The translations under genes and the position numbers were made by a program. 10,134 nucleotides of DNA from a virus: UHGV virus genome UHGV-1424210, one strand, 5' to 3'. Position 1 is the stretch's first letter. Every line of letters starts with the position of its first letter. Below, piece after piece: positions 208 to 10,134 of this stretch. Under the pieces are notes generated by a model. It did not search any database. It saw nothing but the letters and a program-made list of their open reading frames with translations, and had not been told where the DNA came from.

Positions 208-417
208 TTACACTGCCTTACCTGAATTAATGCGATCCCGGCTTTTAACCCATTCCATAACCTCGGACAGCAGCCACCCTACAGAACGACCGCCCAGATT
301 AAGACGTGACGGAAAGCTCCCTTTTTTCTCCAGTTCGTAGCGTGTAGTGCGACACACTCCAGTTAACTTACGACATTCATCCTCACGGATTACGCGATCT
401 TCATTTATTTCACGCAT
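208..417 (-). CDS. alpA: AlpA-family (prophage CP4-57 regulatory protein / excisionase-like) helix-turn-helix regulator, about 69 aa
   Basis: Translation MREINEDRVIREDECRKLTGVCRTTRYELEKKGSFPSRLNLGGRSVGWLLSEVMEWV fits the AlpA/Xis-like HTH pattern. Start set at the ATG at 417-415. The ORF-track start at 504 is a GTG directly abutting AAGAGG, with no usable spacing, and would add 29 non-conserved residues. Confidence 0.75.
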   Translation of the reverse strand: MREINEDRVIREDECRKLTGVCRTTRYELEKKGSFPSRLNLGGRSVGWLLSEVMEWVKSRDRINSGKAV

Positions 418-758
418 ACAAAAACCTACATAAAAATTACGTATATAAACTTTTCTCTTAGCTGTAGATATATGAGATCGGATATTACTTAGATTCTTTT
501 TCACCTCTTAAATTAAAAACACAACCATGCTAAAGGCTTTGTTCGCTAAGGTTCGTAGAAGCTCGTTAGTGTTTAAAATCGTGTCACGAGTTTTTAAGCG
601 ACGCAACAAAAAATGTCGTCATTTGGCATGACACCTTAATTACCTCATTAAAAACAAATAGATAAACCATCAGGTGTTGGAACAATCAAGAAACAGAGAA
701 TAAGAACTCAGAAGAAGACATTTCAATTTTTTTCGATAGTTGACACATATAAAGAGAA

Positions 759-836: not shown

Positions 837-2075
837 TCAAGAATTTTGGGGGTAAATTCGCGGGGTCATAACAACGATTTTTTCATCATTGTTCTGGAGA
901 AGCTCGAGACGGTCTACCCATAGATTAAGAGCATCACGTTTTGCATCAAGGTAGCGGGAGTGGTTATAGACTCGTTGCATCCCTGGCATCTGGTGGGCTG
1001 TAAGCTGCTCGACAATATGCGGATCCACGCCTAAATCGTTCAGCATGGTTGTAAATGTGTGCCGGATATCGTGTAACGTCCAGGGGGCTTGATTAATTCG
1101 TCTGTGCGCTGTTCTTCCGTACTCTGCTACCGAAGATTGTCCTTTCAGTTCACCAAGCAATAAGCCTGTGTGTCTGTTCTGCTCCACCAGTTGCGTGACG
1201 AACGGCAAAATGCTTTCCGGTATTGGCCTGAATATGGCGACCTTCGTTTTGCTGTGCTCCTTCGGTACTGTCCAGAGCATTTCTTTAAAATCCCACTCCT
1301 GCACCTCAGAGCGCCTTAGCTCAGTGGTACGGCATCCAAAAACAATCAGGAGGCGAATTAGGGCGCTGTAGTATGGCGGGAATATTTTGTCATCCAGGGC
1401 GCGGAGTAATTCCCCAAGCTCCTTATTTGTTAGTACGCGCTCGCTCACTTCTGCTTTTTTTCCCACATCACCGACAACCATATCATCAAGAACGTTGCTG
1501 ATTGCGTATCGTCGTTTTCGGCAGTACTTAAGCGCCTGTTTGCATACCTGTAGCAAAAATCCGGCAGATACAGGGCTTCGCTTTGCCATCTGGTCAAAAC
1601 ATGCCAACCAGTGCCGTAGCTCGCATTTTTCCAACGGCAAAGCGCCAATCTGGCTGATTATGTGTTTATTGATCCGGCTTTTCAGTGATTCGTAGTCAGT
1701 GCGCTTTTCCTTTGCATACGATTCAAGCCAGTAAGTGAGCGCTTCCTTAACTGTCACGGGGGCTAACGCATCCTGTACAGCACGATTAAGCTCATAGCGC
1801 GGATTTTTCCCCTCAGCCAGCCAGGCGCGACACTGTGCTGCTTTTTCCCTGGCTGCTTTCAGGCTCAGATCGGGATAATTGCCCAGTCTCAGACGTTCCG
1901 GTGATACCTGCCTACCAGTTCCGGCCCTGTAAGTGAAATACCAGGTTAACAGGCCGCTGGTGGAATGTCTTACGCTAAGATTGCCACCGTCATTAAAAAA
2001 GGCGTTTTTTGTGGTTGGTGATCCGCTTAATTTTCGTAAAAGAGTGTCGCTAAGTCTATGAATTGCGCTGCTCAT
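837..2075 (-). CDS. int: Site-specific tyrosine recombinase (P4-type integrase), 412 aa
   Basis: Full-length ORF starting with ATG at 2075-2073. C-terminal catalytic-domain signatures: conserved Arg in LIVFGCRTTELRR, His-x-x-Arg box WTLHDIRHTFTT, and a C-terminal Tyr region QRVYNHSRYLD. Overall resemblance to P4/CP4-57-type integrases. Confidence 0.9.
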   Translation of the reverse strand: MSSAIHRLSDTLLRKLSGSPTTKNAFFNDGGNLSVRHSTSGLLTWYFTYRAGTGRQVSPERLRLGNYPDLSLKAAREKAAQCRAWLAEGKNPRYELNRAVQDALAPVTVKEALTYWLESYAKEKRTDYESLKSRINKHIISQIGALPLEKCELRHWLACFDQMAKRSPVSAGFLLQVCKQALKYCRKRRYAISNVLDDMVVGDVGKKAEVSERVLTNKELGELLRALDDKIFPPYYSALIRLLIVFGCRTTELRRSEVQEWDFKEMLWTVPKEHSKTKVAIFRPIPESILPFVTQLVEQNRHTGLLLGELKGQSSVAEYGRTAHRRINQAPWTLHDIRHTFTTMLNDLGVDPHIVEQLTAHQMPGMQRVYNHSRYLDAKRDALNLWVDRLELLQNNDEKIVVMTPRIYPQNS

Positions 2076-2098
2076 GTTTAGCGTTTCCGGTCATCAAA

Positions 2099-2355
2099 AT
2101 TAACTACACCATTGACTACACCGTGCATCGTACAAGGGCAAACCGTGACGAACAAGAGCGAACAAGGAAAACAAAATTTTCCTTTATAATCATAGCGATG
2201 AATGCACACAAAACACTACCACGAACACCCGCGAACACTAGATGATAAATAACTATCATTTATATCATTTAGTTAATTAGTCTTTATTTTTCATTATGTT
2301 GCAAATAACAAGCCCGTCAAAAACAGTGATATTAACTACACCATTAACTACACCG
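2099..2355. repeat. Pair of 25-bp direct repeats, ATTAACTACACCATT(G/A)ACTACACCG, at 2099-2123 and 2331-2355
   Basis: The two copies differ at one position and are 232 bp apart. Each is itself a tandem duplication of ATT(A/G)ACTACACC. They flank the putative int promoter. Confidence 0.7.
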
Positions 2356-2386
2356 CTTCACGAACAATATCGAACAACCGCGAACA
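2149..2386. repeat. Seven CGAACA hexamers in helically phased (10-bp) groups upstream of int
   Basis: CGAACA at 2149 and 2159; at 2222 and 2232; and at 2361, 2371 and 2381, with exact 10-bp spacing within each group. Candidate integrase arm-type or AlpA/RDF binding sites. Confidence 0.6.
2293..2320 (-). promoter_or_regulatory. Candidate sigma70 promoter directed toward int
   Basis: On the minus strand: -35 TTGACG (reverse complement of 2315-2320), 16-bp spacer, -10 CATAAT (reverse complement of 2293-2298). Predicted leader of about 210 nt to the int ATG at 2075. Lies between the repeat groups. Confidence 0.35.
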
Positions 2387-2642
2387 AAGATCAACACGCT
2401 TTAATCATTATCATTTTCCGGCTATCCGTCATGAAGCTGGTGGATGATCTGCGTGGTGATTTCCACCATTCAGAGCAGGGGCGGTCATCATGACCATGCC
2501 ATAACAAAAACCCCATATTCGTGGTTTTTCTGTGTCGGGGCTATTCTGCTGTTGCCGTGCTGGTGGATATTCTCCGGTATGCGGCTCCCCATATCGGCAT
2601 CAGGCCCACCAGCGTGAAGCGTTTTTCATTTTTCGCGGGTAT

Positions 2643-2702
2643 AAAAAATCGATGGGGCGGGCAGTCCTGAAGACGTCAGGGTACAGAGATTTGACCCGCC
2701 CC
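2643..2702 (-). terminator. Intrinsic terminator (minus strand): compound GC stem followed by U6
   Basis: GGGGCGGG (2654-2661) pairs with CCCGCCCC (2695-2702), enclosing an inner hairpin CCTGA-agacg-TCAGG (2666-2680). On the minus-strand RNA this is followed by AUCGAUUUUUUAU (plus-strand A-run 2643-2648). Confidence 0.5.
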
Positions 2703-2716
2703 TCCCTGTGCATGAG

Positions 2717-2752
2717 CACAATAAGTAACCGAAGGCGGAATTCCGCCCTCGG
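2717..2752 (-). terminator. Intrinsic terminator (minus strand): 10-bp stem around GGCGGAATTCCGCC plus U-rich tail
   Basis: Minus-strand RNA CCGAGGGCGG-AAUU-CCGCCUUCGG (one G-U pair) followed by UUACUUAUUGUG. First terminator reached after the packaging operon. Confidence 0.5.
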
Positions 2753-2784
2753 TACTTACATATGAGAAACGATATTTCTTCCAC

Positions 2785-2925
2785 CGATACCCTTTATTTG
2801 GGTATCGCGAGTAAGCCCCAAAATCTGGGTGTTACTCTTACTACCCAAACTACGGGTAGTTTCCGTAGTTTCATGGTCGAGTTGCAAATCTGCAACTCAC
2901 CCACCAGCCAACGCAATTTTGCGTT
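2785..2925. other. Cluster of four hairpins / inverted repeats in the untranslated region downstream of the packaging genes
   Basis: H1 CGATACCC-tttattt-GGGTATCG (2785-2807); H2 alternative stems ACTACCC/GGGTAGT (2840-2860) or AAACTACGG/CCGTAGTTT (2847-2871); H3 GAGTTGC-aaatct-GCAACTC (2879-2898); H4 AACGCA-attt-TGCGTT (2910-2925). Confidence 0.45.
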
Positions 2926-2943
2926 ATCGGGAATATCAGCAAG

Positions 2944-3324
2944 TTACCGCCGCAGTCGTTCCGGCTTCTTCCACTGGTAAGTACTTTTCGCGCTCTCCCT
3001 CCGTTGTTGAGAACGGCGACGGTATGCCAGCAACTCAAGGACTCTGGTTCGTATGTTGCGCATATCCACGCCGTTAAGCTCAATACCATCACGGCGCATC
3101 ACCTCAGCAACAACACGCGCGTAATTTTCGGCTATCACGCTGTCCGGCTGCGTGGCCTCCTGTTCGCCAGCCTGCTGGCTGATTCCGGTAATACTGCGGA
3201 TTATCCCGAGCGCTTCGGTCTCGGTCATGGTCATGGTCATGGCCTCCATAGTGATGGCGGGTCCTCCTTGTGGGGTGCCCTGCCACGGGGCGGGAGCATC
3301 GCGGAAAAAGGCTAGTTTTTGCAT
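2944..3324 (-). CDS. Hypothetical protein downstream of terS (126 aa from ATG 3324; more likely about 101 aa from ATG 3249)
   Basis: Same strand as the operon. A strong SD, AAGGAGGA, lies 13 nt upstream of the internal ATG at 3249; the ATG at 3324 has no SD. Contains an in-frame (ATGACC)3 repeat encoding MTMTMT. No recognisable family. Confidence 0.45.
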   Translation of the reverse strand: MQKLAFFRDAPAPWQGTPQGGPAITMEAMTMTMTETEALGIIRSITGISQQAGEQEATQPDSVIAENYARVVAEVMRRDGIELNGVDMRNIRTRVLELLAYRRRSQQRRESAKSTYQWKKPERLRR

Positions 3325-3485
3325 TTTTATTCGTCATCACCACCAATGCAATATATTGATATGACTTGATGTTTTATTTTTCGGTGTCGATTTCGATTGT
3401 TTTTTGTTCATCACTGACGCATAACGCCCACCAGCGCAACGCTGAAAGCCAGTCAGTAAACTGGCTTCGGTCATTGTGCACTACG

Positions 3486-4028
3486 TTACTTGTCTTTATC
3501 CGGCTGAAACTTATCAGGCACATTTCCGGTAGTTTCCATCAGATAATCGGACAGCATTCGCGGGATGTTTTCATCAAGTTTTGTGCATGCGTTACAGGCT
3601 CTGACAACTTCTTTTTTCAGGCCATCCAGCATGACGGGGGTCATCTGTGGGAAGCTCCTTTGCATAGTAAGCGGGAGGCTGTCCATGATTGATGAAATCT
3701 GACTCGCCAGTTTTGAAAGCGCGTACATGCAAAACTCTGTATCAATCACGTCACCGCGATCGCGCTCGTTTTTAAGTTCCTGCGCCTCCGCCTGTGCTGT
3801 CAGTAATCTGATCCTGACTCGTAAGAGTTCATCATCATCAATCTCGCCTTTGTCGTTTGTAAGCTGGCTAATTGCATTGTTAACCCTATTGTCTATCACG
3901 CTGGCAACATCATAAAACGCCTCACGGCCTTTACGTTCAACGGGAGTCACTCCCCACTTGTCGAATGCTGTAGCACTTACCCGGCAGCTTTGCGCCATGG
4001 TTTTTTTGTTCATCAGGTGCGATTTCAT
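3486..4028 (-). CDS. Terminase small subunit, lambda Nu1-like
   Basis: Full-length collinear similarity to lambda Nu1 as recalled: RLLTAQAEAQELKNERDRGDVIDTEFCMYALSKLASQISSIMDSLPLTMQRSFP… versus lambda RLTRAQADAQELKNARDSAEVVETAFCTFVLSRIAGEIASILDGLPLSVQRRFP…; C-terminus ENIPRMLSDYLMETTG versus ELIPGLLSEYIEQSG. The ORF-track start at 4031 is TTG; ATG candidates are 4028 and 4013 (MNKK…, matching lambda MEVNKK…). Confidence 0.85.
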   Translation of the reverse strand: MKSHLMNKKTMAQSCRVSATAFDKWGVTPVERKGREAFYDVASVIDNRVNNAISQLTNDKGEIDDDELLRVRIRLLTAQAEAQELKNERDRGDVIDTEFCMYALSKLASQISSIMDSLPLTMQRSFPQMTPVMLDGLKKEVVRACNACTKLDENIPRMLSDYLMETTGNVPDKFQPDKDK

Positions 4029-4129
4029 CAATATCCCAACTTGGTCAAGGTTTCAGGTTGGTGTGTTGGTGTTATCTTTCCCTTTTTATTCATGGAGATA
4101 GAGCAAACAACAAAACCACCACCACCACC

Positions 4130-4215
4130 CTGAAAAAGCTCATAAATAGCGAAAAACCGCAAGGTCGCCGCCCCGTAGCCTACCGGATCGCCGGAAAGGA
4201 CCCGCCAGCCAGAAC
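4130..4215 (-). other. Lambda-type cos site (cosQ/cosN-like); cosN cohesive-end sequence at 4162-4173
   Basis: Minus strand reads GGGCGGCGACCT at 4173-4162, identical to the lambda 12-nt cohesive end as recalled. Both flanks also resemble lambda: CGGGTCCTTTCCGGCGATCCGGTAGGCTACG upstream and TGCGGTTTTTCGCTATTTATGA downstream. About 135 bp upstream of the terS start, as in lambda. Confidence 0.8.
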
Positions 4216-4229
4216 GGGACCTAATTTCA

Positions 4230-4613
4230 TCAACCAATCAACTTATAGCGACCATCCCGTGCATTGCGACGTACACGCTCAATCTTGAGGCATAGCGCCG
4301 CATCTGGCTTTTTTGGGACAGGTACGCGGCAATATTCAGAAGCTCGAGGAATATTGTTTATCCAGTCGATCACTTCACTTAAATACCAGGCCTTACGCCC
4401 TTCCGTAACCTGTACGCGCTCGGGGAACTCTCCGCGAGCCTCAAGGTTTAGCAATGTGCGACGGCTAAGGGTAGTAAGTTCCATCACCTGATTCATATCA
4501 ACAAGGCGTTCACTTAAACGCATTTTGTCAGCAATAGCCTTTAATTCCTCTACTGCTGGATCCGGATACATCATTTCGGCAATTGGCTTAAGGTCATTGT
4601 AATGATTCTGCAT
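4230..4613 (-). CDS. AlpA-family HTH protein with an approximately 45-aa N-terminal extension (127 aa)
   Basis: C-terminal part VMELTTLSRRTLLNLEARGEFPERVQVTEGRKAWYLSEVIDWI matches the AlpA/excisionase-like HTH pattern. ATG at 4613 is preceded by SD AAGGGGGA at 5-nt spacing. Sits between the D-like gene and cos. Confidence 0.75.
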   Translation of the reverse strand: MQNHYNDLKPIAEMMYPDPAVEELKAIADKMRLSERLVDMNQVMELTTLSRRTLLNLEARGEFPERVQVTEGRKAWYLSEVIDWINNIPRASEYCRVPVPKKPDAALCLKIERVRRNARDGRYKLIG

Positions 4614-4624
4614 TGTATCCCCCT

Positions 4625-4966
4625 TTACACACGAGCCAGCGGCTGAACAGAAATACCTGAGCCAACAAACGCGGCAACCTTTGCCGACAGTTCTTTTACA
4701 GACTCAGGCCAGTTCAGAGCATCAACATTTAAAACACCTGTCTTATAAACCTGTGCCTGTGTTTTTTTCGCTGTGTCGATTTGTACAGCGGAAACATAAA
4801 CCGCTTTGCCTGCGCTCGTTCCATCCCATACCACTAGCGCACCAGTTGCATCTTCCTGCATCAGTGGCGTAAACGCAGGTATTACCCCTTTATTGGCTGA
4901 AAATATCCCCAGCGTAGTAACCAGTGCTTCAGTGCCAGACATGAGTTCAGTGTAATGAGTAGCCAT
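4625..4966 (-). CDS. Head decoration protein, lambda gpD-like (113 aa)
   Basis: Similar length to lambda D (110 aa), with shared motifs THY, TPLM, WDGT, KTG, WPE and a C-terminal AF-G-x-IS. SD AAGGGGGAG upstream of the ATG at 4966. Starts 10 bp after the capsid gene stop. Confidence 0.8.
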   Translation of the reverse strand: MATHYTELMSGTEALVTTLGIFSANKGVIPAFTPLMQEDATGALVVWDGTSAGKAVYVSAVQIDTAKKTQAQVYKTGVLNVDALNWPESVKELSAKVAAFVGSGISVQPLARV

Positions 4967-4975
4967 TGCTCCCCC

Positions 4976-6022
4976 TTAGCCAATGCGAACGGTAACAAAA
5001 CGATTGATGCGGGCCGGTATTGGCTGTGGTGCTGAATGTGTCTGCACATATTCAATAGCCGGATCACCAGGCACAATATAGTTTTTCGGTGCAAGTTCGG
5101 CTTTAGTCAGCCCCATCCGGATTAGCTCCGGATCCTGAATACCGCCATAAGCGACAATCCCCTGAAGAGCCGTATTGCCAAGCACCATCAAATCAGGATC
5201 AAGGAAATATTTTTCAGTTCCGTCCTCGTCGGTATAACGCCCGCTGTAAACAACAATCGCAACATCGCCCATATACCCTTTAAAACTCACCGAATCACCA
5301 AGGTCTTTAAGGGCCGTTTCCAGTTCGGAATTAGAACCACGACGAGTATCCAGAGCCTCTTTTATCGCCCTGAATGAACGGTATTTCTTCCATACATTAC
5401 CGCCCATAATGATAATATTAGTGACGCCCTCACTAAATTCTGCGTAGCTCTCAATATCATCATTTGGATCAAAAGCTTCTTTATCCTTACCTGACCACTC
5501 AGCACCGCCAGACTGAGTGATGATATTTTGTGGTTTAATATTCCAGTCCAGCTCATAACGTTCAATACCATCGCCCTCAATGATATTTTTCCCCGTTGTG
5601 ATTGCCTGAACGGCAAGCCATTCAATACGTGCACGAATAGCTTTAGCCTGATTTACAATCGCCTGTTTAACTTTAATATTACGCGCTCCAAAAGCATTGT
5701 ATTGCTCAGGTGATACACCAGCAGGGCGCACAGCTAACTTATTTGGATCAATGCTGCTTTTCGGTTTCATATAGCCAGGGCGAATTGTTTTTGATTCGTA
5801 TCCCTCATCTCGTGAAACTTTACTGCCCACCATAGGAGAGCAAAACGCCGCGATCGGGATATTTGGATCGTCGATCGTATCAAGAATAATGTCTCTCGAT
5901 TCAAACATTACCGAGCGAGTGAAAAACAAACTGGTAAACAACGCATTTAATTTTTTTTGCACATCTTCAGCATTAGCCACCTGCACAAGCTGTGTAGGCG
6001 AATATAAGTCAACCATACTCAT
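4976..6022 (-). CDS. Major capsid protein, lambda gpE-like (about 348 aa)
   Basis: Collinear similarity to lambda gpE as recalled, e.g. NIITQSGGAEWSGKDKEAFDPNDDIESYA and ALDTRRGSNSELETALKDLGDSVSFKGYMGDVAIVVYSGRY versus lambda NITQSGGTEWSKRDKSTYDPTDDIEAYA and KLDTRRGSNSELETAVKDLGKAVSYKGMYGDVAIVVYSGQY. Start set by homology at MSMVDLY (ATG 6022); the alternative ATG at 6016 has better SD spacing. The ORF-track start at 6103 is TTG. Confidence 0.9.
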   Translation of the reverse strand: MSMVDLYSPTQLVQVANAEDVQKKLNALFTSLFFTRSVMFESRDIILDTIDDPNIPIAAFCSPMVGSKVSRDEGYESKTIRPGYMKPKSSIDPNKLAVRPAGVSPEQYNAFGARNIKVKQAIVNQAKAIRARIEWLAVQAITTGKNIIEGDGIERYELDWNIKPQNIITQSGGAEWSGKDKEAFDPNDDIESYAEFSEGVTNIIIMGGNVWKKYRSFRAIKEALDTRRGSNSELETALKDLGDSVSFKGYMGDVAIVVYSGRYTDEDGTEKYFLDPDLMVLGNTALQGIVAYGGIQDPELIRMGLTKAELAPKNYIVPGDPAIEYVQTHSAPQPIPARINRFVTVRIG

Positions 6023-6187
6023 CCTCTTTACATTCATTACAAATAATTGTGAATATATTCTATTACCGATGTCTGCTATGCGAATACATGCAACCAAGTG
6101 CAATGTTGTATAAAATATGCTGTGACAACTTCAGTGCTGATAATTCGTGTTAATGTATTTACTTCCTTTGGTCGGGATTTATGTAGC

Positions 6188-6216
6188 ATGCCGGAAAATC
6201 TATTTTTTTCCGGCAT
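6188..6216. other. 11-bp-stem hairpin between the SSB-like and capsid genes (terminator-like)
   Basis: ATGCCGGAAAA (6188-6198) / TTTTCCGGCAT (6206-6216) with a 7-nt loop. A T-rich tract follows on the plus strand only, so its role in the minus-strand operon is uncertain. Confidence 0.35.
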
Positions 6217-6233
6217 CTTTTTGTTTGCAGAAT

Positions 6234-6656
6234 TTAAAACGGTATATTATCGCCGTACGGATCATCATTCCCCGACTGTTGTTTTGCCCTGTTCAGTGCG
6301 TCAGTGGCCTGCCCCTGCTGGCCTTTTTTGCCGCCCGGTCGCGCTGTTCGCGCACTGATCACGCTGTCTGCGATAACCTGCCAGCCCTGCCGCGTTTCGC
6401 CGTTCTGGCCTGTCCACTGGCTTACCTGCATGTTACCCGCCACGCTCACCAGTTCGCCTTTGTGGTGTTTTGCCAGTGCGTCGGCCTGTCTGCCAAACGC
6501 CAGGACGGATAACCACATCATCGCCGTTCCGTCATCTGCCTGGCTGCACGGAAGGGGGACCGCCATACTAGCCATCGCCATTTGTGTACCCTTGCTGGTG
6601 GTCTTTAACTGCGGGTCAGCCACCAGCCGTCCGTAAGCCGCTATCTGTGCTGTCAT
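6234..6656 (-). CDS. Single-stranded DNA-binding protein (SSB)-like, 140 aa
   Basis: OB-fold-like core WLSVLAFGRQADALAKHHKGELVSVAGNMQVSQWTGQNGETRQGWQVIADSV resembles E. coli SSB [51 protein letters not shown]. Gly/Gln-rich linker and acidic C-terminal tip DDPYGDNIPF (compare SSB DFDDDIPF). SD GGAGAG upstream; the start ATG overlaps the upstream stop (ATGA). Confidence 0.65.
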   Translation of the reverse strand: MTAQIAAYGRLVADPQLKTTSKGTQMAMASMAVPLPCSQADDGTAMMWLSVLAFGRQADALAKHHKGELVSVAGNMQVSQWTGQNGETRQGWQVIADSVISARTARPGGKKGQQGQATDALNRAKQQSGNDDPYGDNIPF

Positions 6657-6895
6657 GCTGTCTGCTCTCCGGTTTTAACGTTGATGGTTGTCACCTGTTC
6701 CGCTTCGGCAATCTCCCGTTCTGTCAGCGTGGCAAAGTTTGCAGCTGCCGTTGTCATGAATGCGCTAATCAGTTCGGGATGTGCTTTCGCATATCCTTCC
6801 CCGGCGTTGCGGTCGATGATTTTTATCGCCACTCTCAGCCAGTGCTCTGTAAGGTCAATAGCGCGGTAGTGTGGTTGTTTGCGGTTTTCCTTCAT
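6653..6895 (-). CDS. Hypothetical protein, 80 aa, translationally coupled to the SSB-like gene
   Basis: ATG-initiated ORF whose stop overlaps the SSB-like start (ATGA). First gene after the iteron region. No recognisable motif. Confidence 0.5.
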   Translation of the reverse strand: MKENRKQPHYRAIDLTEHWLRVAIKIIDRNAGEGYAKAHPELISAFMTTAAANFATLTEREIAEAEQVTTINVKTGEQTA

Positions 6896-6935
6896 AGTTC
6901 AGATCTCAATTTTTCGTATATATATACAAAACAGT

Positions 6936-7250
6936 GCGGGTTATGCGGGTTAGCGGGTTATCTTCGCTTGCTAAGTATTTTTTATTCCTTAATATCAATA
7001 CATTACAAAATTAACTGTTTACTGTTTAGCCGTGGCGTAACCCGCAAAATGCTCAAAATAACCCGCAAACGGGGTTTTTTCTGCGGGTTACGCGTGGCTG
7101 TTTGCTGTCACTTCCTGTTATTCATCTGCGGGTTATAATCGCACTTTTGCGGGTTATAACTGCCGTTTTGCGGGTTACGTGCGGGTTATTGATTTCCTTT
7201 TTATTCATGCAGTTAATGCACTTATACACAGAGTAACCCACATAACCCGC
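6936..7250. repeat. Iteron array (9-bp GCGGGTTAY) flanking an AT-rich stretch: candidate replication origin
   Basis: Direct copies at 6936-6944, 6945-6953, 6954-6962, 7083-7091, 7128-7136, 7149-7157, 7170-7178 and 7181-7189. Inverted copies (TAACCCGC) at 7036-7044, 7058-7066 and 7242-7250, plus a degenerate one near 7233-7240. AT-rich region 6962-7030. Immediately downstream of the Rep stop at 7274. Confidence 0.7.
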
Positions 7251-7273
7251 AACTTTTCACCTCACACAGGGGG

Positions 7274-9397
7274 TTAATCTTCTGCCTCAGGCTGGAACAT
7301 CAGCACGTAAAAAACATGCTGCTTCCCCCCAATTTTGCCGAGAGCCTTTTTCTTGTAACGGCGATCGTTACCCGCTTCCAGCATTCCGGCAGCACTCAAC
7401 GCGCGGGCAAAGTGGGACGGGTTAAATCCCTGTGCGATCTCCCCCTCAAACACATGAGGAAACGTGTAAAAACGGAACTCATCATCTTCATTTCTGATAC
7501 TCCCCTTTCTGTATCCGGCAAGGTCTTTAATCGGTAAATCACGTTCATCACTGTTTGGGTAAGGAAGGTATCGACTGAACCCGAACGACGACAAAAACGC
7601 CTCAGCCTGTTCAACCATCTGTTTAAATTCCCTGTTACCCGTGCCGAACTCCTTCACCCAGGCATTAAAGTTATGCTGTATTGCGTCCCGGCATTCCTGC
7701 GCGGCCCAGCCAGTTACATGACCGGAAAGCACAAGCGCGGCCTCCAGTATGGCGAAACGCTCACCCACGCGGTGGACTTGCTCGCCGTAGCTCTCCGGTA
7801 TCAGGTTGCGCCACCGTTCGCGGCATTCCCTTACCGTATCCTTTGCCTCCTGCTGGTGGCCTGCCAGCCATTTAACCCACTCACGACCCGCTGCCCCGTG
7901 ATTTTCTGTCCAGGCATCCTTTAACGCGTCTGCGTGCGCCTTTCCGGTGCTGTATTCGTGAAAGTGCGTGGCTTTTTCCATCGGAACGTTAAGCAGGCGG
8001 ACAAGCTGCCCCGCTTTGACTTTTATCCCCTCCGTTTTGAGGAATGTCTCAACGTCCATTTCTCCGGTGCTGATTGCCACCGTGCGCCAGTGTTTTATCT
8101 CCCGGTTGCCGCCGTCCTTCGCCCCCTGTAATTTCCCGGAACCGTTAAACAACGTATAGGCTGACGTGGACACCTCCCGCGCGTTTCCGGCCTGGCCTAT
8201 TTCATCCAGGGGTAACAGCCCGTCGTTGTGCGCCTCTGCCTCGTTAGCGATACCTAACGCTGTGCCGTACCAGGTCAGCCGTTGTGCGTCCGGCTCTCCC
8301 CATAAACTTGATGCGATGTTCTGCGTGGTGGTTTTCCCTGCCGATGACTGTTCGAAAAGATGTACCCCGAAGCCGTCAGCACCAACAAGGCCAATCAAAG
8401 GTGCTGCCAGTGACGTGGCAACACCCAGCATCATGGACGGATTGCCACCAGCCAGCCGCGCCACGCAGTCGCGCCAGCCCTCCGACGTACCCGCAACCGA
8501 ATAGCCATTAACAGTGGCACTTTTTCCGGTAAACAGGATCGGTTTTTCAGAATCACCAATGATTGAGCCGTCCGGCATGATATACGCGCCAAAATGCCAG
8601 CCCGTTGTTGTGCTTAGCTGCCATTCCTCATGGCTTCCGCTTAACTGCATCCAGTCAGCCAGGATAGCCCTGTATTTGCCGTTTGTTGTCACGTTCAGCC
8701 CGTGATCTTTAAGCAACCGCCAGCCGTCACGGTCGCCAATGCCACCACACGGGATCGCCATTGTGATGACTTCATGGTTTGCTAATTTTTTCCAGCGCAT
8801 CACGCGGTAATGCTCTTTACCGATCGTCCCCGTTCCCAGTAGTTCAAGCGGAGAACATAACCACGTCTCAGGCCGGATAATTTCGCCTGACTGCTTATCC
8901 ACTTTGGGCGTTACCCAGAAAACACCATCGACGCGACTTTCAACGCGGGGCTTTAATTCATCATCCTGATAGCATGGCTCTTTTTTCTTTACAGGCAGTT
9001 CAACTACCTTTTTCTTTTCCGCCTGCTCTGCCCGTTCACGTTCCAGATATTCGCGCCAGTTCTCCCGTTTCTGGCTGTGCATTCCTTCAGGGTAATAATC
9101 AGCATCCCTGACACCTGCCGCTGCCAGTTTCTGCCCGATGGTATTAACAAGCCCCGGACGCAATAACCCCGCCTGGTAGAGACGCACGCGATAGCGTCCG
9201 TCCGGTACGATTTGCAGGTTGTCCAGTTCGGCAAGTTGTTGCTCTCCAAGCCAGACAGGTGGCACGTTATCGCCAGCCAGTCGCCCGTCCTGTTCCTGCC
9301 ACTGCTTCGCATGTGCCCACGCATCACTACCCGCAAAAATGATGACTTCCGTCATTTTGTCACGCGGCTGGTGTTTTAAATTTGGCGCTTTTTTCAT
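7274..9397 (-). CDS. Replication initiator (primase/helicase-like ATPase; resembles DUF927-type proteins of CP4-57/PICI-like islands), about 707 aa
   Basis: Long ORF with P-loop-like motif FEQSSAGKTT and Walker-B-like LLPLDEIG. Adjacent iteron origin. Start set at ATG 9397 (SD GGAGAGAG, ATGA overlap with the upstream ORF stop); the ORF-track start at 9412 is GTG. Family assignment is from memory, not from a search. Confidence 0.8.
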   Translation of the reverse strand: MKKAPNLKHQPRDKMTEVIIFAGSDAWAHAKQWQEQDGRLAGDNVPPVWLGEQQLAELDNLQIVPDGRYRVRLYQAGLLRPGLVNTIGQKLAAAGVRDADYYPEGMHSQKRENWREYLERERAEQAEKKKVVELPVKKKEPCYQDDELKPRVESRVDGVFWVTPKVDKQSGEIIRPETWLCSPLELLGTGTIGKEHYRVMRWKKLANHEVITMAIPCGGIGDRDGWRLLKDHGLNVTTNGKYRAILADWMQLSGSHEEWQLSTTTGWHFGAYIMPDGSIIGDSEKPILFTGKSATVNGYSVAGTSEGWRDCVARLAGGNPSMMLGVATSLAAPLIGLVGADGFGVHLFEQSSAGKTTTQNIASSLWGEPDAQRLTWYGTALGIANEAEAHNDGLLPLDEIGQAGNAREVSTSAYTLFNGSGKLQGAKDGGNREIKHWRTVAISTGEMDVETFLKTEGIKVKAGQLVRLLNVPMEKATHFHEYSTGKAHADALKDAWTENHGAAGREWVKWLAGHQQEAKDTVRECRERWRNLIPESYGEQVHRVGERFAILEAALVLSGHVTGWAAQECRDAIQHNFNAWVKEFGTGNREFKQMVEQAEAFLSSFGFSRYLPYPNSDERDLPIKDLAGYRKGSIRNEDDEFRFYTFPHVFEGEIAQGFNPSHFARALSAAGMLEAGNDRRYKKKALGKIGGKQHVFYVLMFQPEAED

Positions 9398-9693
9398 TTC
9401 TGCTCTCTCCACGCGGCAATCATGTTTTTCAGTTCCTGTAGTTTTTTATCCACATCCACACGTGACACATGGTTATTTCTGGAAGTCGGGATTTCCCGCC
9501 GGAATCTGCAAATAAAGATCTCCACGTTCAGCGAACTAAGAAATGAATAGCCATCACGGATAAAATACACACGGTCAAACATCAGTTCTTTTACCGTTAC
9601 TCTGTTACCGTTCTTATCCAGATAAATAGCGCCGGGGATAATTTGGGGGTGTGCATAACCGCTGGCAGTCAAGCCAGATAAATACGTTCTCAT
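9394..9693 (-). CDS. Hypothetical protein, 99 aa, translationally coupled to rep
   Basis: ATG at 9693 with an upstream GGGGAT; stop overlaps the rep ATG. No recognisable motif. Confidence 0.55.
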   Translation of the reverse strand: MRTYLSGLTASGYAHPQIIPGAIYLDKNGNRVTVKELMFDRVYFIRDGYSFLSSLNVEIFICRFRREIPTSRNNHVSRVDVDKKLQELKNMIAAWREQK

Positions 9694-9699
9694 GATTAT

Positions 9700-10020
9700 T
9701 TATCCCCGATTTGAATCAGTATTCGCTTTCTTTATAGCATTTAATGCATCTGTGGCATTTTCAATGGTGCACCGTAACGAAATATCAAAATGTCCAAGCA
9801 TTGCCAGTAACAAACCGATATTACCCATATCAATGCGCATGGCCTTTTCGTCATAGTCCTCATTTTCTGACGCATGCCACATCAGGCTACCAATTGACGC
9901 AACAGCCATTGATATATTGTCAGTAGCCCCATCCGCAGCGGAATAAACCTTTTTAGCAATATCATGCTCACAGTTAAAATGCGGATTAATCAGGTACTGG
10001 TAATTTGACATATCAGGCAT
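9700..10020 (-). CDS. Hypothetical protein, 106 aa
   Basis: ATG-initiated ORF. Its start overlaps the stop of the upstream partial ORF by 8 nt. Six bp separate its stop from the next start. Confidence 0.55.
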   Translation of the reverse strand: MPDMSNYQYLINPHFNCEHDIAKKVYSAADGATDNISMAVASIGSLMWHASENEDYDEKAMRIDMGNIGLLLAMLGHFDISLRCTIENATDALNAIKKANTDSNRG

Positions 10021-10134
10021 GGCACACCCCCTGACGAATACGGGCAGCGAATACCATCACGCAGCCAGCCGGGGATTGCAGGCGTGCTTCCTGTTCGCTG
10101 GTGGCCTCAATGGTAATCACGCGCGGTTGTGCCG
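10013..10134 (-). CDS. Partial CDS (C-terminal 39 codons) entering from the right edge
   Basis: Open minus-strand frame from the window edge to TGA at 10015-10013 (…VITIEATSEQEARLQSPAGCVMVFAARIRQGVCHA), overlapping the next gene start; indicates an operon of at least four genes. Confidence 0.4.
   Translation of the reverse strand, partial: AQPRVITIEATSEQEARLQSPAGCVMVFAARIRQGVCHA

Follow-up and report, generated by a model that had tools for sequence, protein, structure and literature searches.

The joined ends of a chromosomal island

The stretch of DNA analyzed here, the 10,134-nt viral contig UHGV-1424210 (the window, whose numbering is used throughout), carries a tyrosine integrase gene, int, and immediately downstream of it alpA, which encodes a small protein of the AlpA/Vis family. 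A dense array of repeats sits directly upstream of int. The segment that holds these repeats, positions 2099-2397, is almost certainly the attachment site (attP) of a phage-inducible chromosomal island (PICI) of the EcCICFT073/EcCIO42 family, present in its excised circular form. We refer to its int-proximal side as the P arm and to its int-distal side as the P' arm. The two genes and the core of the site are as follows:

837-2075, minus strand: int, a tyrosine integrase of 412 aa (Pfam Phage_integrase, 2.7e-18; N-terminal arm-binding domain Arm-DNA-bind_3, 1.4e-16)
208-417, minus strand: alpA, a 69-aa AlpA/Vis-family winged-helix protein (Pfam Phage_AlpA PF05930, 3.1e-16), candidate recombination directionality factor (RDF) and activator
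2242-2263, unstranded: att identity block ATGATAAATAACTATCATTTAT, 22 bp, the junction of both island ends, from comparison of attL, attR and attP
2245-2250, unstranded: core site C, ATAAAT, the left inverted half
2251-2257, unstranded: predicted 7-bp overlap AACTATC, centre at 2254
2258-2263, unstranded: core site C', ATTTAT, the right inverted half

The window matches the island integrated in E. coli C 237-04 with 99.9% identity, in two pieces. Positions 1-2263 correspond to the right end of that island and the boundary with its flank, and positions 2242-10134 to its left end and onward. As the two pieces meet with their ends at 2242-2263, the window is a circularly permuted, excised island. 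The integrated island is ~10.7 kb long and lies between clpS and yljB/cspD. Approximately 596 bp of the integrated copy (L001 13888-14483, with Icd-like and YlcI/YnfO genes) are absent between the two ends of the window, which is a nearly complete circle opened within the Icd-like region. All genes of the island run in one direction: int, the AlpA-family gene, Icd-like genes, DUF4222, a DUF927 primase-helicase, SSB, the major capsid, a decoration protein, a second AlpA-domain protein and a Nu1-like small terminase. The element has the hallmarks of a Gram-negative PICI, namely unidirectional int, alpA and pri genes, a size in the ~10-12 kb class, a dedicated chromosomal site and kinship with mobilised PICIs. 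Its int-alpA-arm module is held in common with EcCICFT073, which has been mobilised experimentally, and with the island of E. coli 042, both of which have been named PICIs (PMC6092414). Both arms are carried by 367 of 5426 complete E. coli genomes, and the empty site is intact in 5058 of them.

An earlier reading of the window, made from its letters alone (the sequence-only reading), had proposed that the array may mark the recombination region and had recommended a comparison with the other end of the element. The first proposal was borne out, since the island ends meet at 2242-2263; as for the second, both ends are already joined within the array, and the matching repeats and shared core that it anticipated were found there. 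The four att sequences define a consistent crossover. The attL site reads ATGATAGATAACTATCATTTAT, attR reads ATGATAAATAACTATCATCTAT, attP in the window reads ATGATAAATAACTATCATTTAT and attB, from the empty site of ATCC 11775, reads ATGATAGATAACTATCATCTAT. attL and attR are reciprocal hybrids in which both differences between attP and attB segregate reciprocally, and strand exchange therefore took place between core positions 8 and 18, that is, within 11 bp at 2249-2259. In both attP (ATAAAT-AACTATC-ATTTAT) and attB (ATAGAT-AACTATC-ATCTAT), perfect 6-bp inverted repeats surround an identical 7 bp, and the two attP/attB differences are symmetry partners. We infer that the crossover is the 7-bp overlap AACTATC between the inverted 6-bp core sites. 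attB overlaps the stop codon of the small gene yljB, and the start codon of clpS follows 85 bp downstream of it. The layout has the characteristics of an attP for a heterobivalent tyrosine integrase: int is adjacent, the core is common to attB, the overlap is flanked by inverted core sites, and the arm repeats are unlike the core.

Circular junctions are found elsewhere in this group of elements, as the sister element L075, of tqsA type, likewise carries one. The metagenome contig L010 (IMGVR_UViG_3300019373_000108) bears an attP junction on the side of int, and its opposite end is a junction of attL type with host flank from the clpS side, which suggests that excised and integrated forms co-existed in that sample; its replicase module differs from that of the window.

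Two classes of repeat on the arms

The arms of the attP carry doubled 12-mers and 10-bp phased arrays of CGAACA-like units, and a pair of such units recurs upstream of alpA:

2099-2122, plus strand: P-arm doubled 12-mer ATTAACTACACC-ATTGACTACACC, a candidate Int arm-type pair, with 24 bp to the int start codon and 132 bp to the crossover centre
2129-2175, plus strand: P-arm distal array CGTACAA, CAAACCG, CGAACAA, CGAACAA and then AAAACAA (at a 9-bp step), candidate AlpA (RDF) operators
2183-2195, unstranded: conserved block TTTATAATCATAG of the P arm, without a match to the consensus of integration host factor (IHF)
2222-2238, plus strand: near-core pair CGAACAC-CCG-CGAACAC, which abuts the core, candidate AlpA (RDF) sites at a distance of 63 bp (6.0 turns) from the distal array
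2331-2354, plus strand: P'-arm doubled 12-mer ATTAACTACACC-ATTAACTACACC, a candidate Int arm-type pair, 77 bp from the crossover centre
2361-2397, plus strand: P'-arm array of three CGAACAA units at 10-bp steps and a degenerate TCAACAC, candidate AlpA operators, not enclosed by the two 12-mer pairs
536-555, minus strand: phased pair CGAACCTTAG-CGAACAAAGC, with the CGAAC unit of the att arms (CGAAC-N5-CGAAC match at 541-555), 120-138 nt upstream of the alpA start codon

The doubled 12-mer, built of ATTRACTACACC units, is 24 bp long and 23/24 identical between its two copies. The sequence-only reading had described two 25-bp repeats, each an internal tandem duplication; the duplication is real and correctly placed, and only the length needed adjustment. 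Exact ACTACACC occurs in the whole window solely at the four 12-mer positions, and the pattern TTRACTACACC has 4 matches where 0.22 would be expected (none of 200 shuffles gave as many). The direct repeat between the arms stretches to 57 nt at 72% identity (2099-2155 versus 2331-2387), so that each copy is a module of two 12-mers and about three 10-bp units.

The hexamer CGAACA is present on the plus strand seven times, as had been reported (at 2149, 2159, 2222, 2232, 2361, 2371 and 2381). The exact 10-bp spacing ascribed to all seven holds only inside three clusters of two, two and three, with gaps between clusters of 63 bp (6.0 helical turns) and 129 bp. Likewise, the helical phasing attributed to the array as a whole is a property of the hexamers, whereas the 12-mers recur every 12 bp, which is not the helical repeat. 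CGAAC-N5-CGAAC has 5 matches in the window against 0.01 expected, four of them in attP and one upstream of alpA. In-phase degenerate units (CGTACAA at 2129, CAAACCG at 2139, AAAACAA at 2168 and TCAACAC at 2391) lengthen the arrays. A literature search with the motif strings returned nothing relevant.

A scan of viral contigs with an alignment of Int yielded 80 loci; a scan of genome contigs with the single Int protein gave two irrelevant loci only. Related int-alpA modules occupy three further sites, at roxA, tqsA and comM/ilvL. EcCICFT073 is a member at the roxA site, with arms as in the family of the window, and the P' arm of the E. coli 042 island carries the 12-mer and array module. In every element among the viral-contig loci the doubled 12-mer is present once per arm and nowhere else, and ACTACACC is invariant in all related elements. 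As far as the left core half-site TGATAAA, the P arm can be aligned from the start of int without any gap, and divergence begins exactly at host DNA. On the other side, TGATAAA lies 88-89 bp from the P' 12-mers in the clpS, tqsA and roxA classes despite unrelated spacers; across four integration-site classes the distances from 12-mers to core are fixed, even where the spacer is unrelated.

The phased units are conserved in a looser form. Across related modules the 10-bp unit is kept as xAACAAG, and the CG is not conserved. The array at 2129-2175 is invariant in the clpS clade, with xAACAAG units at the homologous position in sister clades, and the near-core position is occupied in sister clades by GAAACA/AAAACA units. 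Within the clpS clade the P arm varies only at 2195-2221. The 12-mers and the CGAACAA triplet of the P' arm are kept in the clpS-site variants L018 and L038, though the neighbouring spacer has been replaced or has diverged, and the phased pair upstream of alpA is kept in all clpS-clade variants despite diverged flanks, with four phased units in some. In EcCICFT073 and the 042 island, the spacer between int and alpA contains a six-unit phased array just after int and three units upstream of alpA.

A number of further observations concern these arrays and the DNA around them. The P-arm array of a roxA-type island (L095 2030-2080) is short of exactly one 10-bp unit (GCTGGAACAA), and its phase is kept. 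Just past the int stop codon, at 760-797 on the minus strand, the window has GAATAG, GAATAT, GAATAT and AAATAT at 12-, 10- and 10-bp steps; the same place holds a six-unit (A/C)ACAAC array in islands of the EcCICFT073/042 type and GTTCG, the inverted CGAAC, in some clpS-clade variants. The conserved block TTTATAATCATAG is possibly a bend or host-factor site, and a perfect IHF consensus occurs in the distal spacer of sister clades. An open reading frame on the P arm (2063-2245, plus strand; L004 2468-2650) is annotated in E. coli 042 as hypothetical protein WP_001332680.1; its position matches that of the repeat array, and it is unlikely to be a gene. Just inside the P' arm, after the last gene of the leftward operon, lies a strong terminator-like hairpin (2728-2753, minus strand; 11 pairs, 8 of them G-C), and a scan of the window against Rfam gave no match. 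Further from the arms, the replicase gene (7274-9412, minus strand; loci L010-L089) is a mosaic with a common N-terminal part of ~123 aa and a DUF927, P4-alpha-like or RepA-helicase C-terminal part, and all three replicase types were found within one int-alpA clade.

Candidate binders and a promoter-like site

The proteins that might occupy the two classes of repeat are encoded in the same module. The window AlpA shares 43% identity with the P4 excisionase Vis and 66% with the AlpA of EcCICFT073 type, and the window Int shares 24% with P4 Int across the full length of the protein. RDFs bind head-to-tail on direct repeats that follow each other by one helical turn, and promoter regulation is a second function of several of them (PMC7498355, PMC11963761). 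The phased arrays show what would be expected of an RDF array: at least two direct repeats spaced by one turn, a cognate candidate RDF gene in the module and, in EcCICFT073, a like set of putative operators at an AlpA-responsive promoter. In that island AlpA activates an alpA promoter-lacZ fusion, and expression of alpA alone sets off excision without raising int expression (PMC6092414). By the published primers, the alpA promoter fragment maps to L097 7128-7583, that is, the whole int-alpA spacer, which contains 6+3 phased units and no ACTACACC. AlpA thus acts on DNA that has phased arrays without 12-mers and promotes excision without more int expression, which is RDF-like behavior. With these parallels, the odds somewhat favor the 10-bp phased CGAACA arrays as candidate AlpA operators. 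If the arrays are assigned to AlpA, the 12-mers are left by elimination as arm sites for the Arm-DNA-bind_3 domain of Int, an assignment that the analogy with P4 supports; we consider it likely that the four ACTACACC 12-mers are Int arm-type sites.

Taken together, an attP with the 12-mers as Int arm sites and the arrays as AlpA operators is, with fair though not full confidence, the best joint explanation of the locus. According to this model, the four 12-mers, two per arm, would hold the N-terminal domains of an Int tetramer, as in P4, while AlpA, as a protein of Vis/Xis type, would line up head-to-tail on the CGAACA units with a monomer at each helical turn and would thereby bend the arms. 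Bound to the units upstream of alpA, the protein would activate its own promoter, and induction of alpA would in this way both amplify AlpA and turn Int toward excision. Such an assignment of 12-mers to Int and arrays to AlpA would account for the ability of a single small protein to activate the PICI operon as well as to direct excision.

The sequence-only reading had named two AlpA proteins as candidate binders. The second of these, a 127-aa AlpA-domain protein (4230-4613), was rejected as the array binder because its presence is independent of array type: it is absent from the complete L018 and L038, which have CGAACA arrays, and present in L065, which has another type of array. The 69-aa AlpA linked to int remains the candidate.

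Several observations weigh against this assignment. An int-lacZ fusion of EcCICFT073 is unaffected by AlpA (PMC6092414), and that fusion maps to host flank, core, P arm and the 5' part of int; the null effect on a construct bearing the P arm fits a purely architectural role of AlpA and equally fits no binding at all. The P' array is not part of the DNA that would be bridged by Int, an unusual position for RDF sites. The attP of the window contains no match to the IHF consensus. In addition, int, alpA and the arms are always inherited together, across 90 loci, and covariation thus gives no means of telling whether Int or AlpA binds a given class of repeat. A GTGAC/TTAAC flank variant of the 12-mer does follow an Int subclade while AlpA is identical, as essentially a single event. 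Finally, Int arm sites of the lambda type can stand in tandem at about 10-11 bp, so phased arrays could themselves be Int sites.

This last point leads to a reverse or mixed assignment, in which the CGAACA units would be extra Int arm-type sites, like lambda P'1-P'2-P'3, and the 12-mers would be bound by AlpA or another factor. The perfect covariation of both Int and AlpA with the arms fits this assignment as readily as ours, the authors of a study of an analogous doubled motif left its binder open (PMC10111431), and the silence of the array-bearing int-lacZ fusion toward AlpA (PMC6092414) is in keeping with it. We nevertheless judge it unlikely. The EcCICFT073 alpA promoter fragment that AlpA activates has phased arrays and no 12-mer, a phased pair also stands upstream of alpA in the window, and the 12-mer motif of P4 is restricted to int/attP and absent from Vis-regulated promoters. 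Moreover, a period of 12 bp is ill suited to a head-to-tail RDF filament with one-turn spacing (PMC7498355), and four 12-mers equal the number of arm domains in an Int tetramer.

Two readings would give the repeats no part in recombination. The repeats could be purely transcriptional operators, for int or for outward transcription toward clpS; a promoter-like site does lie between the core and the P' 12-mers, and int promoters are repressed by Int and the RDF in P4 and KplE1 (PMC7286903, PMC2951348). That site is not conserved, whereas the distances from the repeats to the crossover are fixed on both arms across clades that differ in spacers and promoter content, which argues for an architectural role in recombination and makes an exclusively transcriptional one very improbable. 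Alternatively, the phased repeats might be replication iterons, of the P4 ori/crr or SaPI origin type, bound by the island primase-helicase and flanking an AT-rich unwinding region. Repeats around an AT-rich centre do resemble such a layout, the crr iterons of P4 lie directly beside its attP, and the P4 type-1 iteron TGTTCACC resembles TGTTCG, the reverse complement of CGAACA. Yet the arms do not follow replicase type: identical or nearly identical arms accompany three unrelated replicase C-terminal modules (DUF927, P4-alpha-like and RepA helicase) in each int-alpA clade. The AT-rich centre is, furthermore, the demonstrated crossover site, CGAACA units also occur upstream of alpA, and PICI origins have been reported downstream of pri (PMC10111431). 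We rejected the iteron reading on the failure of arms to track replicase type and consider it extremely unlikely.

The remaining feature of the attP is the one that the sequence-only reading had taken for a near-consensus promoter reading into int:

2293-2320, minus strand: sigma-70-like site in the P' arm, TTGACG (2320-2315), a 16-nt spacer and CATAAT (2298-2293), with 10 of 12 consensus positions

The site is on the int strand, as that reading had it, and is the only sigma-70-like match in 1900-2800. Because the crossover lies between the site and int, only circular DNA would allow the site to drive int; once the island is integrated, the site points out of attL toward clpS-clpA. Its -35 element is a perfect TTGACA in the variants L015 and L038. 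Promoter-like matches on the int strand are found at chance frequency (1 versus 2.0 expected in shuffles), and the site is absent from the spacer variant L018 at the clpS site and from the roxA, tqsA and comM clades, both of which count against a promoter function. Neither a standard nor a relaxed scan found an int promoter between int and the core, and a host-side promoter reading into int was not found in the host flank. At attR, yljB is co-oriented with int and has its stop codon inside the core. That the P'-arm site is an int promoter of the circular form only seems to us possible and rather doubtful; a circle-only promoter would, by weaker inference, favor re-integration. From the layout around its two junctions (2293-2320 in the window; L001 5596-6100 and 16725-16813; L002 300-420), the island may alter clpS/clpA expression and receive host read-through into int, and we flag this possible effect of insertion on clpS-clpA expression.

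A more ambitious proposal, which we hold to be improbable, joins the two-12-mer and array module into a composite Int-AlpA loading unit on both arms, with the P' copy placed just upstream of a junction-spanning promoter, coupling the direction of recombination to state-dependent transcription. In the circle, int would be transcribed from this promoter. In the prophage, transcription from it would run into clpS-clpA, the upstream region of which is displaced by the insertion, and yljB transcription would enter int. If such units existed, the 10-bp xAACA code would delimit the AlpA regulon in PICIs of the EcCICFT073/EcCIO42 family, and the composite view would settle which protein binds which attP repeat, a question left open in 2023.

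Relation to known att systems

The layout of this attP is clear but largely expected, being already known from P4, and leaves the general picture of tyrosine-integrase att sites unchanged. The resemblance to lambda attP includes a heterobivalent Int, a 7-bp overlap with inverted core sites, arm sites to the left and right of the core and an RDF array on one of the arms; the window differs from lambda by the lack of an IHF consensus match, by tandem arm pairs of 12 bp and by RDF-like arrays on both arms.

Among RDFs, 186 Apl, P2 Cox and RdfS of ICEMlSymR7A have direct-repeat operators one turn apart, both in att and at the RDF-controlled promoter (PMC7498355, PMC11963761). Apl and Cox repress, whereas the AlpA of PICIs activates its own promoter (PMC6092414), and RdfS has no clear consensus, in contrast to the clear CGAACA/xAACA unit of the window. 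Unlike these three systems, the window also has an array on the far side of the distal 12-mers. With regard to the promoter-like site, ICEKp1, ICEclc and ICEEc1 carry a far-end promoter that is placed upstream of int only once the ends are joined (PMC13023037); the counterpart of this switch in the window is a consensus match only and is not conserved in sister clades.

The closest architectural parallel that the sequence-only reading had drawn, to P4, holds at the level of architecture and extends to the 43% identity of AlpA with Vis noted above. The P4 record (GenBank NC_001609) annotates 12-bp 'attP arm sequence repeats' in tandem pairs at 3942-3965 and 4151-4174, with the core at 4078-4097 and the int start at 3926. 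As in the window, int lies beside attP and each arm has a co-oriented tandem 12-bp pair. In P4 the proximal pair is separated from the int start by 15-24 bp and from the core by about 115-120 bp, and the distal pair is about 55-68 bp beyond the core, which makes each arm of the window about one helical turn longer than that of P4. The motifs differ: the arm motif is TGCCCCC in P4 versus ACTACACC in the window, and the phased unit is CGGA versus CGAACA. In P4, TGCCCCC is confined to int/attP and does not occur at the late promoters that Vis regulates. Directly behind the proximal 12-mers, P4 has three exact CGGA and an AGGA at 10-bp steps, the sole CGGA-N6-CGGA matches in its genome, and three phased GGA units abut its core, analogous to the near-core pair of the window. 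P4 Int has the same domain set as the window Int, and P4 Vis is homologous to the window AlpA; P4 Int and Vis repress the int promoter (PMC7286903). P4 differs in that it integrates in a tRNA-Leu gene, whereas the window element is found in the 3' end of yljB, and in having two extra single arm repeats near or inside int, of which none were seen in the window. The window element is, moreover, a PICI and not a P4-like satellite.

A second parallel comes from the helper-embedded PICIs (HE-PICIs) described by Tommasini, Mageeney and Williams in 2023, in which a doubled TGTATTGC is co-oriented on both arms at 81±2 and 132±2 bp from the attP centre (PMC10111431). These authors noted that the motif is absent from other PICIs and left undecided whether its binder is the Int arm domains, AlpA or another protein (PMC10111431). 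The module is of the same type as in the window, with int and alpA, and the distances to the attP centre are closely similar (132/81 bp in the HE-PICIs versus 132/77 bp in the window), while the motif differs (TGTATTGC versus ACTACACC). We confirmed the 132/81-bp geometry in L098, an HE-PICI in the major capsid gene of a lambdoid prophage. In L098 (6100-6400 and 16900-17140) the 12-mer GCAATACA is doubled beside int and tripled on the distal arm. A GAAAGCC 10-bp pair abuts its core, analogous to the near-core pair of the window. Its alpA directly abuts int, which leaves neither a spacer nor a separate array at an alpA promoter.

Our analysis provides an exact attP/attB map, with overlap, core sites and arm geometry, for a PICI clade that is present in about 7% of complete E. 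coli genomes and is sister to EcCICFT073, and it extends the doubled 12-mer architecture of P4 and the HE-PICIs to a further integrase clade with a new motif.

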